Source of the DNA: a phage
DNA: 64,000 nucleotides
Direction: 5' to 3' (one strand)
Sequence record: PZ154896.1
This document shows, in pieces, positions 13,409 to 53,800 of this stretch. Each line of letters opens with the position of its first letter. Position 1 is the stretch's first letter. The notes below the pieces were generated by a model. It was not told where the DNA came from. It did not search any database and saw nothing but the letters and a program-made list of their open reading frames with translations. The position numbers and the translations under genes were made by a program.

Positions 13409-13668
13409 TTAAAATATTCTCGCAGTTGGTCAAATCCACCAATGTGACTTCCGTCAGGAGCAAACACTTGAGGCATAGTCAATCCGACTTGTGATTCACG
13501 TCCAAGCTTAACCAGAAGCTCAGCAATTTTCTCATCATCGAACACACCTTTTTCTGGCATAACATTAATGAATTCGAATGGCTGTTTCTTAACAGTCAGC
13601 AATCGTTTCGCATTATCACAATAAATGCATTTATGAATAGTAGAGTCATACCCGTACACTTTAAACAT
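13405..13668 (-). CDS. nrdC: thioredoxin/glutaredoxin NrdC
   Basis: start at MFKVYGY; CIYC redox motif; 87 aa as in T4. Confidence 0.8.
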   Translation of the reverse strand: MFKVYGYDSTIHKCIYCDNAKRLLTVKKQPFEFINVMPEKGVFDDEKIAELLVKLGRESQVGLTMPQVFAPDGSHIGGFDQLREYFK

Positions 13669-14074
13669 TATTTTTCCTTTCATCAATTAAATATGCAACG
13701 CCAAATACAATACATGTAATAAAACCTGTGATACAGATAGAAACCAACAACACTGTACCAAAGAACCAAATCAAGTTATCTTTAGTAGTTTGTTTGATAT
13801 CCATCTCACGAATTTCTATAGCTATCGTATCACCTTTATTAAGAAGCGTATAAAACGATGGTGATACATGCCTGTCAAAAACTCGACCTTGTTCATCTTT
13901 ATAAACTGCAATAAATTCCAATTTAGAATATTTTCCTGTAGATTGACCTGAAATTAATTCCACTACCTCCACAGGAATTACTTTAGTTTCCATGTAAGTA
14001 TTCTGGCTGTTCCAAATGAATGGAATGACGGCAAAAACTAAAGCTGCAATAAAACAACGAAGGCTATATCTCAT
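13661..14074 (-). CDS. membrane protein
   Basis: 137 aa with N- and C-terminal hydrophobic segments. Confidence 0.45.
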   Translation of the reverse strand: MRYSLRCFIAALVFAVIPFIWNSQNTYMETKVIPVEVVELISGQSTGKYSKLEFIAVYKDEQGRVFDRHVSPSFYTLLNKGDTIAIEIREMDIKQTTKDNLIWFFGTVLLVSICITGFITCIVFGVAYLIDERKNNV

Positions 14075-14379
14075 TATAATGTTCTCTCAAATTTGTGGAA
14101 GCATTTACGGCATTTCAATTTCAAGTTATCAGTGGTCCAGTTAACCAGTTGGACTTGGATAGTTCCACATTCCGGACATGGATGTTTTGCTGCCGATTTG
14201 GCAGCATTTTCACGTCGTTCAACCATTTTCATGATTTCGTTCCATGCCGGAGTAACGAACTCTTCTTCACCGTGGATTTTATCTCGCTGAACAAATTCAA
14301 TCTTTGAACTATCGTCAATAAACTTAACCAAGCTGTGATTAGTGCTCATGTCAATATCCTCTAAAAGACGTAGTTTCAT
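14074..14379 (-). CDS. zinc-ribbon protein
   Basis: 101 aa; CPECG...CRKC four-cysteine motif. Confidence 0.5.
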   Translation of the reverse strand: MKLRLLEDIDMSTNHSLVKFIDDSSKIEFVQRDKIHGEEEFVTPAWNEIMKMVERRENAAKSAAKHPCPECGTIQVQLVNWTTDNLKLKCRKCFHKFERTL

Positions 14380-15329
14380 TATAAAACCTCAATGGCATTT
14401 CGTAAACCATCAGCTTTTGCATTCAGAGCTTTTAATGATTTAGTTTGTTCTGCAATCTGGACTTCGACTTCTTTCAGACGAGATTTGAGATATTCGCGTT
14501 CTTCTCTTAAGTTATCAACTTTTTCTACTTTAGGTTCTTTAATAGGCTTAGGCTTATACGTATTAGGGTTCTTCAGCTTAATTTGAATACGAGAACTGTA
14601 TAACATTGAACCGTTATCTTCGGATTCGTCGAACGTTTCAACAACATCCATAGTCTCTAACAATGTAATAAGTTTATAAGACAACGAACGAACGGTTTTG
14701 TTATGCTTATTAATTTCTTCAGCTTTCATGGTACCGAGATTACGTGAGTAGTAATAAGGAACCTGGATATCAATTGACAATGATGCGTTACCATTACCAG
14801 TTGGTTTGAATACTGCAGTAACCCAATCTTTAACATGAACTTTATTTGTACGACCATCACCGCCTGTGAATAATTTACGTGAATGTTTAAAAAGCATATT
14901 CACTTGATTATTAAATTCACAAGCAAATTTATCAGCAAATTTAGTTTCAGGAATGGTAGATAACCAATCAGCTAAATGAGTCTTTTTAACATCGTTAATA
15001 ATAGTAAATTCAACCAAATCAGTTTTAGATGTCACAGATTTAATAAAGCTCGGCTTCATAAAGTTTTTAATGTTATCGCGAGCTACAGTAGAAGATAATA
15101 AACGAGAACGTTTGAACCATTGAAGCAGTGTCCCTAATGAATGAGAATACGCATTCTGAGTATCTTTACAGATATGATTTTCTTGACCTGTGTATGTACC
15201 AAAATCTCGAAGAATACCACTTACTACAACTCGGTGTGGAACATCAAATCCTAATGAACCAGAAGCACGTTGGGCATGAACGTTAGCGATAAGACCTGCA
15301 AAATAATCAATGTAATGTGAACGTGTCAT
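14379..15329 (-). CDS. hypothetical protein with C-terminal coiled-coil
   Basis: 316 aa; heptad-rich C-terminus. Confidence 0.5.
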   Translation of the reverse strand: MTRSHYIDYFAGLIANVHAQRASGSLGFDVPHRVVVSGILRDFGTYTGQENHICKDTQNAYSHSLGTLLQWFKRSRLLSSTVARDNIKNFMKPSFIKSVTSKTDLVEFTIINDVKKTHLADWLSTIPETKFADKFACEFNNQVNMLFKHSRKLFTGGDGRTNKVHVKDWVTAVFKPTGNGNASLSIDIQVPYYYSRNLGTMKAEEINKHNKTVRSLSYKLITLLETMDVVETFDESEDNGSMLYSSRIQIKLKNPNTYKPKPIKEPKVEKVDNLREEREYLKSRLKEVEVQIAEQTKSLKALNAKADGLRNAIEVL

Positions 15330-15357
15330 AATATTTTCCTCTCGTTAAGATAAAAAG

Positions 15358-15387
15358 ATTATACTCCAACCATCCTTGGTTGTAAAC
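15358..15387 (-). promoter_or_regulatory. PeSL-like early promoter cassette
   Basis: rc: GTTTAC-N18-TATAAT with AACCA/TGGTT inverted repeat in spacer. Confidence 0.55.
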
Positions 15388-15391
15388 TGAT

Positions 15392-16324
15392 TTATGATTT
15401 TAATGCATTCATTGCGTTAAAAAGTTTAGAGTACTGCAACTGGAGCTTAGTAACTACTTGTTGAGCATCACGAAGCTTAGCTTGTGCTTTGTCAAGTTCA
15501 ACAGACAGTTGGTCCACAGTGGCTTTGATTTGATTATAATAGTAATCTTCGGCAGGAAGAAGTCCGTTAGAGATTTCCAGTTTAGTCGACGGTGTGCCGT
15601 TAAACATAACAGGTTGTGCTGAAGCTGAATTAATCTTACCGATAGTCGGGGCGACAATAATTGACGCTTCGAACGTTGCATTTTCCTTTTTAAGATTTTT
15701 ATAATATTCAGAGTCTTTGTGCCACCATGGCGCAGGAACCTTTTTACCAATAGATACACGAGCCTGGATAGCGATATGGCCCTTATTCTTGATAATGTCT
15801 ATAATATTAAGCTCACGAGAATAAATTGCTTTAATCTGGTGAATATTATCACCTAACACTTCCAACGCTTGGTGGAATACACGAGCAACGTTATCATTCT
15901 TAGGTTTATACGTAAGAGTGAACTCGTTCTCACTGATAACCATGATTTCTAACTTATCGTAAGTATATTTCAAATGTTTCATGTTAATTGCTTGAGGACG
16001 AATACGAGAAGCAATGGCCATCAGATTGTTAAGGTTATTTCTGAACTGTTTAGCAAAATATTGTCCATAACCGCCGATACAAAAATTACGAAGTTTCTGT
16101 TTGGCTAATAAACGGCTGAACTCACCATTTTTAATGAACTCTTTAACGGGTGTGTTAGTAACGCATTCAAATTGAGTAAACTTACGAGAATTAATCCCAT
16201 AATATGAACAGATTTCCTCAATCTCTTCAGGAGTCTTTACAGGCATACGGATAGGATTAGGACCTGGGGTATATGCGTTCGAGGTAAATTCTTTGATAAG
16301 TTCTCTACGTGTAATAGAAGCCAT
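15392..16324 (-). CDS. hypothetical protein with C-terminal coiled-coil
   Basis: 310 aa. Confidence 0.5.
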   Translation of the reverse strand: MASITRRELIKEFTSNAYTPGPNPIRMPVKTPEEIEEICSYYGINSRKFTQFECVTNTPVKEFIKNGEFSRLLAKQKLRNFCIGGYGQYFAKQFRNNLNNLMAIASRIRPQAINMKHLKYTYDKLEIMVISENEFTLTYKPKNDNVARVFHQALEVLGDNIHQIKAIYSRELNIIDIIKNKGHIAIQARVSIGKKVPAPWWHKDSEYYKNLKKENATFEASIIVAPTIGKINSASAQPVMFNGTPSTKLEISNGLLPAEDYYYNQIKATVDQLSVELDKAQAKLRDAQQVVTKLQLQYSKLFNAMNALKS

Positions 16325-16350
16325 TTTATATTCCTCATGTTGAAAAATTT

Positions 16351-16379
16351 ATTATACTCCAACCATCCTTGGTTGTACA
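16351..16379 (-). promoter_or_regulatory. PeSL-like promoter cassette (degenerate -35)
   Basis: rc: GTACAA...TATAAT; spacer almost identical to the 15358-15387 copy. Confidence 0.45.
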
Positions 16380-17375
16380 TCATTCCTTAAGAAGTTTTAC
16401 TACTTGAATAAGATTAGCTCGTTCTGTTTTATTTTTACTGTTTAAGCCTGCTAATCGTGAGATTTCATCATCAGTCTGTTGAATAGTTACATTAAGTTCG
16501 TTAATCAAAGCTTCAAAGTATTTGATTTGCTCAGCATGTTTTGATTCAAATTTCTGAACCGGAATAACGTCTTGGTTTAGTTCATCAATAAGGTCTTTAA
16601 GAGCATCTTCTTGGTTGATATCATATTCAACTTCTTTTATTTCTTCAACGAGCTCGTCTTTATATCTAACGTCTTTTAGTCCTGGTGCTGGTCCTGAAAT
16701 CTCTTCTTTAAGAGTACAAACATATCCAATACGGTATCCAATGCCGTCTCGCTTGATATCAACTTCGTCAATAAATCCACAATGTTTAAGACCAGAGCCG
16801 ATTAGGTCAAAATATCCTTGACGTCGTCCTTCAAACGTTACACGAACTACTAAGACAGTTTTACCTGCAACCTTTTGAAGCTCACATTTATAAAAGTCTG
16901 TTGAACCTGAATAACGTGGATGAGTTTTAAAGTTCATCTGACGATCTAGGCCCATTTGTAAACGTGCTGATACAGCCAGAAAACGTGTTTGGTTCTCGTT
17001 AAGATGAGCAACAATCCATTTCAAAGGCATTTTACACTGTTCACGACCGAACAAATCAGTACGTCCTAGATTACGCAGGATGTTGTTAGAGTTAATCATC
17101 GACAGAACGTTAAGTTTATTCAGCGCGCTGAAGATTCCATCGGCCATTGATTTTCCGTAACCTTTACACGCTTTAATAAGCGCTCGCGGTAGATTAGTAT
17201 AGATTTCAGACGGCATATGAAAATCAAATTTACTAGTCAGTAATTGATGAACTTGGATAGCAATTTGCTCATAATTAAGTGCTCTGCGATCATTATGGTC
17301 TTTAAACCACACTTTAATCTGTGAAGCACATAAACCGTTAATTTCATGTTTTACCGCATCAGATGTAATGCTCAT
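16380..17375 (-). CDS. hypothetical protein with C-terminal coiled-coil
   Basis: 331 aa. Confidence 0.5.
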   Translation of the reverse strand: MSITSDAVKHEINGLCASQIKVWFKDHNDRRALNYEQIAIQVHQLLTSKFDFHMPSEIYTNLPRALIKACKGYGKSMADGIFSALNKLNVLSMINSNNILRNLGRTDLFGREQCKMPLKWIVAHLNENQTRFLAVSARLQMGLDRQMNFKTHPRYSGSTDFYKCELQKVAGKTVLVVRVTFEGRRQGYFDLIGSGLKHCGFIDEVDIKRDGIGYRIGYVCTLKEEISGPAPGLKDVRYKDELVEEIKEVEYDINQEDALKDLIDELNQDVIPVQKFESKHAEQIKYFEALINELNVTIQQTDDEISRLAGLNSKNKTERANLIQVVKLLKE

Positions 17376-17410: not shown

Positions 17411-17436
17411 ATTATAACCCGTCCTTGGGTAAAGCG
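17411..17436 (-). promoter_or_regulatory. candidate MotA-dependent middle promoter
   Basis: rc: CGCTTTA (MotA-box-like) about 13 nt upstream of TATAAT. Confidence 0.35.
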
Positions 17437-17437
17437 T

Positions 17438-17965
17438 TTATGCGTGAACCGTCTTTAAACGTTCTTCAAATTTACGAAGAGTACTAATACGTTCTGATTT
17501 CTGTTTTGTATAGTTTGCAATACGTTCTGAAGTGAGAGCGTATCGTTCGTTTACTGTTTCTTTCATGAAGTCAGGGATTTCACGAGAAGCTTTAATTTCA
17601 TCAAACTTATCGAGTACTGCCTGGTCTTCAGCGATTAAATTTTCGTACATCTCGATATCTTTCTTGATAAACTCGATATCTTCCTGGGTTACTTTGGATA
17701 AACGAGATGCTTTATCCTTTTTGTACTGCTCGTTAGTTTCACGAGACCAGAATAATGTACGTTTTTTGTTAGTGTTTTTGTAGACTTCCACAATTCCAAC
17801 TGAATCGATGATAGCAATCCAATTCCAGCGAGATTTGAAAATCTGACCTCCGTCCACGGTAATCTCGTTACCATAAGCAACGTCATTAAAGAACTTGCTT
17901 TGTGCTTCAGATTTAAATTTACCGTCGTTATAATTTACCAGGTTGAAAATATCTTTAGCGTTCAT
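17438..17965 (-). CDS. hypothetical protein
   Basis: 175-aa ORF. Confidence 0.5.
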   Translation of the reverse strand: MNAKDIFNLVNYNDGKFKSEAQSKFFNDVAYGNEITVDGGQIFKSRWNWIAIIDSVGIVEVYKNTNKKRTLFWSRETNEQYKKDKASRLSKVTQEDIEFIKKDIEMYENLIAEDQAVLDKFDEIKASREIPDFMKETVNERYALTSERIANYTKQKSERISTLRKFEERLKTVHA

Positions 17966-38007: not shown

Positions 38008-38161
38008 TTATTTCAACGTCACCTTTAGCTGCTTTATAACCTTCAGCCCAAGATACAACAGAGTTTTTATCCGAGGATTCAAATTCAGGCATTGGGCTTT
38101 CACCAATATTCACACAGTATGTTTCTTCATTTTCATCGAACCAAATAATTAAAGTAGTCAT
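37997..38161 (-). CDS. hypothetical small protein
   Basis: start at MTTLIIWF downstream of promoter cassette. Confidence 0.35.
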   Translation of the reverse strand: MTTLIIWFDENEETYCVNIGESPMPEFESSDKNSVVSWAEGYKAAKGDVEIIYI

Positions 38162-38182
38162 TTTGTTTACTCCTCTGTAGTT

Positions 38183-38220
38183 GATAAGTCTATAGTAACA
38201 CCGTCCTTGGTGCTTGTACA
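38183..38220 (-). promoter_or_regulatory. promoter cassette (degenerate -35)
   Basis: rc: GTACAA...TACTATAGACTTATC. Confidence 0.45.
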
Positions 38221-50865: not shown

Positions 50866-53800
50866 CAGTAAAAGCGCCAGCAGTCACAAGTCTCAGAATA
50901 TCCAAGTTGTCCGCTAACCAAGTTCAAATACGCTGGGATGACGTTGGTGCTAATTTCTACTATTTTGTAGAAATCGCTGAGACTAAAACGGCAGACGGGG
51001 AAATAATTCCCCCTGCCAGCTACAGATGGACAAATTTAGGATATACTCCTAATAGCAACTGGTTCGAAAGTAGCTTAGACCCATTAACTTCTTATATTAT
51101 TCGTGTATCAACTGCCGCTGAAGGCTTCGAGAGATCTGATTGGGTATATACCGAAATATTTGAATCATTTCAGACTAACGCGTATACATTTCAACATATG
51201 ATTGAAATGCAATTGGCTAATACTTTTATTAGAGAAAAATTTACAAATAACAACACGGCTTATGTCGATTTTAATAACGACACTATAATGGCAGCTCTAA
51301 TGAATGAATCGTTCCAATTTAGCCCTGCTTATGCGGATATTTCATCTATTAAAAATTTCATTATTGGTGAAAATGAGTATCATGAAATTCAAGGTTCGAT
51401 TCAACAGGTGTGTCATGATATAAACCGTGTTTATTTGATGGAATCCGAAGGAATTCTTTATTTGTTTGAACGGTATCAGCCTGTGGTTAAAGTCTCTAAT
51501 GATAAGGGACAAACCTGGAAATCGGTTAAATTGTTTAATGACCGTGTAGGGTACCCTGTATCAAGAACAGTGTATTACCAGACAGATTACACCACGTATG
51601 TTCTTGGGTATGATAAATTATTTTACGGCCGTAAATCAACTGACGTTCGTTGGTCTGCTGATGATGTGAGATTTAGTTCTCAAGATATAACATTTGCTAA
51701 AATTGGTGACCAGTTAAATTTAGGATTTGATGTAGAAATATTTGGTAACTACGCATCATTACCTGCTAACGTATCACGTATTGCAGAAGCTATCGTTTGC
51801 AATGACGATTATGTATATGTTGCTGCTCGAGATAAAGTCCGTTTTATTAAAACTAGTAATGCCCCTATTGATTCAGACCCATTATCTCCGACATATTCCG
51901 AACGTTTGTTTGAACAAGAAACATTTAACATCACAGGTAACCCTAAGGCAGTTTGCTATAAAATGGATTCTGTCGGTGGTAAAATATTTGCACTGATTAT
52001 CGGTGAAGTTGTTAATCTTAATGACGACCCGAGGACCACTCCTATTGTTGATTCTGCTGATAAAGGTGTTTACGTTCTAGACCATGATGCTGGCACATTT
52101 AAACGTGTGTTTGGTAATACTGAAGAAGAACGCCGTCGTATTGAACCTGGGTACACCAGTATGTCTACTGATGGTGTTGAGTTATCTATTTCATCTAGTA
52201 ATTTTAAATTTTTAGAATCAGATATTGTTGATGACCAAAAAACACAAACCAAGTACGGTTTAATCGGTGCTGTTAAATACGAGTATCCTCGCGAATGGTT
52301 GGCTGATAAACATTATCATATGATGTCATTTATTTCAACTGAAGACTCTCAATGGGAATCGTTCACTCCTCAACCGATGGAATACTATGCTGAGCCATTC
52401 TTTAGTTATTCTAGAAAGTCTGGTACTCGTTGTTGGATTAATAACTCAGACAAGGCCGTTGTAATTTATTCTGATTTACTTTACACTAAGGTTATTGAGA
52501 GTCATCCACTTAGTTCTCCAGACCGTGAAGTTCATGAATATTGGAAGGACGGTGACTGTACAATAGTGATGCCTAACGTAGATTTCACCGGATTTAAAAA
52601 ATATGCATCCGGCATGATTTTCTATAAAGCATCAGGTGAGATTATTTCTTATTATGATTTTAGTTACCGTGTTAGAGATAATGTTTCTATAATTTGGAAG
52701 CCTACTAATGTATTCTTAACAGCATCGTTACAAAACCAAGAAAAAGATACCACATGGGCTCCTGTGGAAGAGAATGGTATTGCGGACCCAGATTTACGAC
52801 CATTGCTCACTACAATGATGCCGGAGTCTTATCTTTTAGATAATACAAACTTCGAAGCATTCTGCGAGGCTTATATTCAGTATCTTTCTGACGGTTATGG
52901 GACCCATTATAACAACCTTTTAAATCTTATTAAAAATCAATATCCACGAGAAGAACATGCGTGGGAATATTTATGGTCTGAGATTTATAAACGAAACATT
53001 TACTTAAACGCCGAAAAACGCGATTTAGTGTCTCGTTTCTTTGAATCAAGAAGTTATGACTTCTATTCAACTAAAGGAACTGAAGCATCATATAAATTCT
53101 TGTTTAAAGTGCTTTATAATGAAGATGTTGAAATTGAAATTGAATCTAGTTCCGGGACCGAATATGATATCATCATTGAATCTGATTCGTTGACAGAAGA
53201 TTTGGTCGGACAAACCATATACACCGCTACAGGACGTTGTAATGTGACGTATATCGAGAGAAGTTACTCTAAAGGTAAATTACAATGGGCTGTAACAATT
53301 CACAACCTCTTAGGTCGTTTAATCCAAGGACAGGAAGTTAAAGCTGAAAGACTCCCTGGTTTTGAAGGTGAAATTGTTCGTGGTATTAAAGGTAAAGAGC
53401 TTTCTCAGAACAACATCGATTACATAAATCGTGGTAGAGCATACTACGTAATGAAGATTAAATCTAAACTTCCATCATCTCGTTGGAAATCAGACGTATT
53501 ACGTTTTGTTCATCCGGTTGGATTTGGATTTATCGCAATTACCCTTCTCACAATGTTTATTAACACTGGATTAACACTTAAACATGTTGAAACCATTATT
53601 AATAAATACAAAAACTATAAGTGGGATTCTGGATTACCGACTAAATATGCAGACCGAGTGGCTAAATTAGACCCACAAGGAAATGTTGAGTTTGACCCTA
53701 TTACAGGTAAAGCGATATATGAAATAGGCCCTATGGCTGGTCAAGATTATCCATTGCCTGAAGATTATAACGCTGAAAACAATAACTCCATATTTCAAGG

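Follow-up and report, generated by a model that had tools for sequence, protein, structure and literature searches.

Three neighbouring nrdC.x genes of a Mosigvirus phage with a common architecture and a candidate role in counter-defence

The 64,000-nucleotide phage sequence PZ154896.1, here called the window, contains three neighbouring genes for proteins of similar size, which we name A, B and C. What are these proteins, are they related to each other, and what do they do for the phage? A sequence-only reading, made without database searches, had described them as tandem proteins with C-terminal coiled coils, each with its own promoter, and had proposed independently regulated paralogs or functional analogs. 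Here, we identify all three as known, uncharacterised nrdC.x genes of T4-like phages. At the profile level A and B are genuine paralogues, whereas C is better described as a functional analogue or a very remote paralogue of the two. With moderate confidence, we propose a role in counter-defence as the most likely one: made in the early or middle period, each protein would bind an immune protein of the host.

Over the 6.5 kb that surround the genes, the sequence matches many Mosigvirus genomes (RB69, JS09, phi25-307 type) with 95-98% identity, and we assign the phage to Mosigvirus, as an RB69/JS09-type T4-like phage. The three open reading frames (ORFs) lie on the minus strand between endonuclease VII/nrdC and the nrdC.10 P-loop gene, exactly where they had been proposed. 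All have ATG starts and GAGG-type ribosome-binding sites.

14379 to 15329, minus strand: gene A, 316 amino acids, orthologue of T4 NrdC.3 (phrog_1435)
15392 to 16324, minus strand: gene B, 310 amino acids, Pfam DUF7235 (PF23882), Mosigvirus counterpart of T4 NrdC.5
16380 to 17375, minus strand: gene C, 331 amino acids, NrdC.6 family (PF26899, phrog_2257)

The A protein is 57% identical to T4 NrdC.3 (E 2e-122) and 76% to RB9 NrdC.3, with a PHROG match of 1.3e-103, and an NrdC.2-like ORF (14074-14379) abuts it directly downstream, i.e. sequence and position agree on the orthology. B matches DUF7235 with 367.9 bits (cut-off 30) over profile positions 1-307 of 307. According to BLASTP it is 24% identical to T4 NrdC.5 over 308 amino acids (E 6e-10), tblastn matches T4-type nrdC.5 genes at E 1e-4, and B and T4 NrdC.5 can be aligned jointly. 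The best T4 match of B is thus NrdC.5 and not the positionally equivalent NrdC.4. C is 29-34% identical to the NrdC.6 proteins of T4, T2 and RB9 (E 1e-18 to 9e-34), in both body and tail, and all 108 of its database relatives carry PF26899. In RB69 the counterparts of B and C are annotated as NrdC.5 and nrdC.6. Precomputed database labels give PF26897 for NrdC.4 and PF26899 for NrdC.6, and in PHROGs each of A, B and C belongs to a family of its own, none with an assigned function. T4 NrdC.3, NrdC.4 and NrdC.6 are conserved hypothetical proteins (phrog_1435, PF26897, PF26899). A and C are orthologous to the first and the last of these and the gene order is kept, but NrdC.4 is present in T4 and absent from this phage.

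Nothing functional came out of searching A, B and C against Pfam, NCBIfam, PADLOC and the PDB sequences, in line with the earlier remark that no enzymatic motif could be recognised. These proteins gave no solved-structure relative and no virion-structural signal either, and a search of viral contigs for related loci found only 4 close ones. Many GenBank phage records use the product name "thioredoxin" for such genes. We rejected this name as a spill-over from the nrdC gene name, there being no thioredoxin-fold Pfam match. The mislabelled runs cover whole nrdC.x blocks, including A, B and C and the P-loop gene nrdC.10.

Relatedness and architecture

When A, B and C are compared directly by BLASTP no match appears, but this silence is no evidence against remote homology. 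A panel of T4-like phages supplied profiles that were compared with hhalign, and twelve unrelated control family pairs obtained E-values of at least 0.046. NrdC.3 and NrdC.4 match with 97-99% probability (E 1e-11 to 4e-17), and NrdC.4 matches the NrdC.5/B family with 69-77% (E 2e-5). Bridged with KpV477_324, X20_346 and Yen9_313, the NrdC.3/4 and NrdC.5/B profiles reach 94-95% (E 2e-8), and when the C-terminal 75 residues are removed the bridged match is still 93.7%, with an E-value of 1.9e-7 over 188 columns. Because the bridged match lies far below the control E-values, we consider A and B true paralogues, although very distant ones that are visible in profiles only. The link of X20_346 to the B family was down-weighted, as it is mostly driven by the tail; that of Yen9 gp111 lies in the body.

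The three proteins would follow a common plan, in which an alpha+beta body of ~230-260 amino acids is joined through a variable linker to a coiled-coil tail at the C-terminus. This architecture and the tail motif are common to the NrdC.3/4/5/6 families across genera. A heptad-register score, judged against a 95% shuffle threshold and with two neighbouring proteins as controls, exceeds the threshold at the three C-termini and nowhere else (A 279-316, B 258-310, C 281-310), and both controls stay below it. The predicted heptad-rich helix is therefore present in all three, but its length is ~38-53 residues and not 40-60, with A slightly below 40. Heptad periodicity and a long proline-free helix are found at each C-terminus, and for C the helix itself is confirmed by an AlphaFold2 model, whose confidence is given below as the predicted local distance difference test (pLDDT).

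14382 to 14495, minus strand: C-terminal heptad-rich helix of A, residues 279-316, ending LRNAIEVL as in T4 NrdC.3
14868 to 14927, minus strand: conserved core helix of A, FACEFNNQVNMLFKHSRKLF, residues 135-154, in the region that aligns NrdC.3, NrdC.4 and NrdC.5/B in BLAST and hhalign
15395 to 15553, minus strand: C-terminal heptad-rich helix of B, residues 258-310, score 0.90 against a threshold of 0.70
15998 to 16057, minus strand: conserved core helix of B, FAKQFRNNLNNLMAIASRIR, residues 90-109, in the same NrdC.3/NrdC.4/NrdC.5 aligned region
16383 to 16535, minus strand: C-terminal helices of C, helix-break-helix, residues 281-331, AlphaFold2 helices at 281-307 and 313-330, pLDDT 75-86
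16605 to 16703, minus strand: acidic, disordered linker of C, residues 225-257, pLDDT <50
16947 to 17006, minus strand: invariant core helix of C, HLNENQTRFLAVSARLQMGL, residues 124-143

The core helix of C holds the NrdC.6-family invariants N128, Q129, R131, A134, A137, R138, L139 and G142, and lies in the stretch over which profiles of the C family give a weak alignment with the B family. Within the NrdC.6 family no part is more conserved than the C-terminal helices. The linker is a 33-residue insertion that corresponds to an alignment gap in the Tequatrovirus and Dhakavirus NrdC.6 proteins.

The model of C has a mean pLDDT of 73 (80-92 for residues 1-140). It contains seven helices, a beta-hairpin, helix, beta-hairpin unit at 162-222, and the disordered acidic insertion at 225-257. 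For B the model reached a pLDDT of 38.5 and was used for no fold claim; it has one helix at 257-309. The alignment behind it is thin: the combined-alignment search gave NrdC.4 and B-type sequences but neither NrdC.3 nor T4-type NrdC.5, and, with B as the sole query, a word-indexed database search went no further than relatives of at least 78% identity, essentially all from Mosigvirus. Among the weak, non-significant matches of the C body to solved structures, H-NOX domains recur (soluble guanylate cyclase beta, Nostoc, K. algicida).

A rearranged gene of Salmonella phage Manna bears on the comparison of C with the other families. Manna_094 (L008:5501-6538) is an in-frame chimera, with residues 1-258 93% identical to T4 NrdC.6 and residues 263-345 96% identical to the tail of T4 NrdC.4. 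In this phage nrdC.5 and most of nrdC.4 are deleted.

Could C, then, be unrelated in origin to A and B, sharing with them size, neighbourhood and a convergent coiled-coil tail, so that the proteins are functional analogues at most? The profile comparisons favour this, as the C family against the others gives marginal or non-significant E-values of 0.0011-0.23, the best one over 71 columns around the core helix. A body-only C profile searched against 1.84 billion representative proteins returned only NrdC.6 proteins, and in body-only iterative hidden Markov model (HMM) searches, with the chimera taken out and the tails trimmed, the NrdC.3/4 and NrdC.6 groups stay apart. A merge of these two groups seen in an iterative HMM search was rejected, since the bridge was the Manna chimera. 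Fold-level matches argue the other way. In a Foldseek search of the viral predicted structures of BFVD the C model matches uncharacterised proteins of 300-345 amino acids from Pectobacterium, Acinetobacter, Enterobacter, Klebsiella, Yersinia and Serratia T4-like phages over their full length, at 12-16% identity, E-values of 7e-8 to 1e-4 and template modelling (TM) scores of 0.40-0.46. One match of 326 amino acids, from Mineola, agrees in length with CPT_Mineola_080, which lies directly upstream of an NrdC.2-like gene, i.e. in the NrdC.3 slot. Mineola_080 is 43% identical to KpV477_324, which itself matches the NrdC.3/4 profile with 90% probability. This chain from C over Mineola_080 and KpV477_324 to the NrdC.3/4 family combines a modelled fold with profiles and is suggestive, not proof. 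In addition, Yen9_292 scores E ~0.001-0.002 to both the NrdC.3/4 and the NrdC.6 profiles (controls at least 0.025), and the natural chimera joins an NrdC.6 body and an NrdC.4 tail at equivalent positions. On balance a separate origin of C appears rather unlikely, and it is the fold-level matches and the common architecture that tie C to A and B. The earlier alternative of paralogs or functional analogs thus divides: profiles support paralogy for A and B, and for C paralogy is not shown by sequence.

Divergence and the counter-defence reading

The flanking genes (endonuclease VII, NrdC, nrdC.8, nrdC.10) are 78-92% identical between the window and RB9, while A is 76%, B 24% and C 33% identical. 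Compared with moha, a phage of the same genus, the flanking genes are at 97-100%, A at 94%, B at 78% and C at 87%. In other genera the gene of ~320-350 amino acids in this slot can barely be aligned between genera, whereas nrdC.10, nrdC.11 and an adjacent gene of ~260 amino acids keep 49-84% identity. The number of copies of these genes per phage varies from two to four. In HY03 nrdC.5 is broken (L011:5420-6443) into two annotated ORFs, with only residues 146-340 recovered as one ORF, and it appears to be a pseudogene. Such a pattern of divergence, copy number and decay is typical of genes that are under diversifying and host-specific selection.

Other changes were seen in single phages and slots. 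T4 NrdC.6 (275 amino acids) diverges after residue 259 from the 295-296-residue proteins of T2 and RB9, and in the nrdC.6-nrdC.5 gap of T4 NC_000866 (L002:7997-8066) the other frame encodes the missing ...SGLSSKAKSEREKLIKIVDLLKS* tail; the T4 gene looks frameshifted and its product tail-less. The NrdC.6 homologue of Shigella phage Sf25 (P0060, 378 amino acids) has an internal tandem duplication of ~50 residues, with IRAHSTDYVNMGHHLCLAFEVLKEAGTLEYSSGAKCPIGSSCILIYRPDE present twice. The ~260-residue gene (49-75% between genera) is located directly upstream of the hyper-divergent gene of ~320-350 amino acids in 4 of the phages X20, KpV477, id4496, Ursula and fHe-Yen9-01; in fHe-Yen9-01 its homologue is found elsewhere in the block.

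T4 NrdC.5 is the only protein of these families with a known role. T4 nrdC.5 alone restores the plating of a deletion mutant on cells with the SIR2-domain NADase defence Dsr1 (Srikant et al. 2022, eLife, PMC9391042), and Gp49.2, encoded a few genes away, inhibits OLD (PMC13096335). The tetratricopeptide repeat (TPR) sensor of Dsr1 is reported to recognise the major capsid protein, a late product (PMC12803255), with which an inhibitor made early or in the middle period fits. B resembles T4 NrdC.5 in its architecture, in an alignment of ~300 residues, in a similar tail ending (LNNALNALN in T4, LFNAMNALKS in B) and in its place in the same block, between nrdC.6 and nrdC.3/4. However, the two proteins are very highly divergent, T4 nrdC.5 directly follows nrdC.6 without its own promoter whereas B has an early-type one, and the anti-Dsr1 activity is known for the T4 protein and putative for B. 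A purely functional analogy may be drawn with DSAD1, the SPbeta-type phage inhibitor of DSR2, which is reported to block a SIR2 NADase defence by binding the sensor region. DSAD1 belongs to another phage group and has another target and a solved mechanism.

According to our proposal, the three genes belong to the hyperplastic nrdC.x block of T4-like phages and encode non-enzymatic accessory proteins that diversify fast. Transcription of A and B would start at early sigma-70-type promoters, whereas that of C would come from a MotA-type middle promoter and, in addition, from read-through. Each protein, present ahead of the late proteins, would bind and neutralise a host immune protein, with a Dsr1-type target for B, as the counterpart of T4 NrdC.5, and other targets for A and C. 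The variable body may provide target specificity and the conserved tail oligomerisation or avidity. The anti-defence activity of A, B and C, their direct binding to targets and what body and tail contribute are inferences, and of the three the reading is strongest for B.

Several points weigh against this proposal. The anti-defence role of A, B and C themselves is putative, and that NrdC.5 binds its target directly is an assumption drawn from the analogy with DSAD1 and DSR2. With no more than 24% identity between B and T4 NrdC.5, even an anti-Dsr1 specificity of B is uncertain. In comparison with RB9, A is not unusually divergent, its identity being like that of its neighbours, but it falls to 57% against T4. 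Sequence statistics do not tie C to A and B, and the claim of a same fold is supported by one model, that of C, plus database models. Finally, other roles in host takeover would also agree with genes that are accessory and evolve fast.

This last point leads to an alternative in which the three are accessory takeover proteins with non-immune targets such as host transcription, the nucleoid, proteolysis or nucleotide metabolism. The phenotype seen with NrdC.5 and Dsr1 would then be a special case or an indirect effect. Takeover is what most T4 early genes serve, genes of nucleotide metabolism (nrdD, nrdC) lie around the block, A, B and C yielded no defence-related domain, and A is fairly conserved in RB9. 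Yet the sole experimental datum for any member of the families is counter-defence, nearby genes are also anti-defence, and extreme divergence, copy-number variation and dispensability fit genes of an arms race better, so we judge this alternative unlikely. An explanation that we hold to be far more improbable is that the bodies bind small molecules through an H-NOX/V4R-like alpha+beta fold and act as sponges or sensors for a metabolite or an immune signal, and not as protein-protein inhibitors.

Promoters and intergenic junctions

A promoter-like cassette is found upstream of each gene, as had been claimed: by sequence for all three, and for C also by orthology to a mapped T4 promoter.

15349 to 15384, no strand: direct repeat copy 1, 36 nucleotides, including a 27-nucleotide exact block
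15358 to 15386, minus strand: sigma-70/T4-early-type promoter-like cassette upstream of A, TTTACA-N17-TATAAT, 11/12 of the sigma-70 consensus
16342 to 16377, no strand: direct repeat copy 2, 89% identical to copy 1, 993 nucleotides away
16351 to 16379, minus strand: sigma-70/T4-early-type promoter-like cassette upstream of B, TGTACA-N17-TATAAT, 10/12 of the consensus
17411 to 17439, minus strand: Mot-box-type middle-promoter-like cassette upstream of C, aaaCGCTTTA, 13 nucleotides, TATAAT

The near identity of the A and B cassettes holds, as they have in common the 27-nucleotide exact block TACAACCAAGGATGGTTGGAGTATAAT, for which 0 matches are expected by chance. Neither has a TGn extension. The A-type cassette is also present in moha and IME08, and a variant form lies upstream of T4 nrdC.3 and nrdC.4. 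The stop codon of C overlaps the -35 region of the B cassette.

We scored the C cassette against the MotA-box rule, (a/t)(a/t)(a/t)TGCTTtA placed 12+/-1 base pairs from a good -10. It agrees at 9/10 positions, with a 13-nucleotide spacing. In position and sequence it is, by comparison, the counterpart of the T4 middle promoter PnrdC.7, which has been mapped with a start site at 53325 (Hinton 2010, PMC2988021). Both lie directly after nrdC.8 and have GCTTTA, a CCAAGGA(T/C)GG core and TATAAT. They differ in the spacing (12 nucleotides in T4, 13 here) and in a C that here replaces the T before GCTT. In T4 the promoter drives nrdC.7, nrdC.6 and nrdC.5. In the window an NrdC.7-like membrane protein (13661-14074, minus strand, 137 amino acids, 40% identity to RB9 NrdC.7) is encoded between nrdC and the nrdC.2-like gene; in T4 its place is between nrdC.8 and nrdC.6. 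As a result of this move the PnrdC.7-type promoter abuts C and would drive it directly. The GenBank and RefSeq records of T4 contain no promoter features for the nrdC.x block.

Promoter-like sites are not commoner across the region than in shuffles (17 found, 22 expected), and the promoter argument therefore rests on position, quality and conservation. A spacer core, CCAAGGATGG, is common to all three cassettes and to their counterparts in T4, T2, RB9, IME08 and moha, and occurs in the whole window at only one further promoter-like site. That fourth site (TGTACAagcaCCAAGGACGGtgTTACTATA; 38161-38215, minus strand) is upstream of a small ORF of ~55 amino acids that starts at 38161 (MTTLIIWFDENEE...). 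Downstream of its -10 is the motif TATAGAC(T/C)TATCAACTAC, which is also found at the nrdC.8 and nrdC.10 promoters.

No terminator-like site was found on the coding strand in the three spacers, and read-through transcription is expected from the lack of terminators between the genes. Independent regulation of the three was for this reason overstated, all the more as A and B have one promoter type.

The arrangement recalls the promoter early stem-loop (PeSL) cassettes, which shuffle genes in T4-type phages (Arbiol 2010; Comeau 2014, PMC4122927). As there, early-promoter cassettes are repeated in a hyperplastic region, and the A promoter fits the T4-type PeSL consensus TTTACW-N17-TAYWAT. Here the repeats also flank indels between close relatives (36 nucleotides in the window, 65 in moha) and gene content varies. 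However, the stem-loop that a PeSL has upstream of the -35 is missing; the only palindrome is a small one inside the promoter spacer of the 27-nucleotide block, CAACC-AAGGAT-GGTTG, with a 5-base-pair stem. Unlike in PeSLs, the CCAAGGATGG core is also found in a middle-type promoter.

In moha an extra ORF of 66 amino acids, moha_89, is located between C and B (L010:6475-6759). In this phage the promoter repeat extends over 65 nucleotides (95% identity) and takes in the orphaned 3' end of a coding sequence of the B type (MNALKS*). Judging from these remnants, repeat and orphan end mark a past recombination at the junction of tail end and promoter.

Meaning for the T4-like phages

The genes and the region are already known and one relative has a published phenotype, i.e. 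this is not a new system. What may be new is the homology of A and B (NrdC.3/4 and NrdC.5), the architecture in common with NrdC.6, and the hypervariable slot across the Straboviridae. A wider reading, which we put forward as speculative and consider doubtful, would unite NrdC.3/4/5/6 and the hyper-divergent same-slot genes of ~300-350 amino acids in Jiaodavirus, Winklervirus, Tegunavirus, Karamvirus-like and Acinetobacter phages in one Straboviridae-wide, modular superfamily of immune antagonists. Its members would have a diversifying body for different host sensors and an exchangeable coiled-coil tail, with the promoter-plus-tail junctions as recombination points. If this were true, two or three such inhibitors, as yet uncharacterised and each directed at a defence system of its own, would be encoded in the window.

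As genome content the three genes are ordinary. The homology of NrdC.3/4 and NrdC.5-type proteins, the architecture in common with NrdC.6 and the syntenic slot that evolves fast in many T4-like genera nevertheless turn "conserved hypothetical" genes into a short list of counter-defence candidates, a useful and cheap set for anti-defence screening. The set is also relevant to the host range of phages used in therapy, as the loss of such genes narrows host range (PMC9391042).

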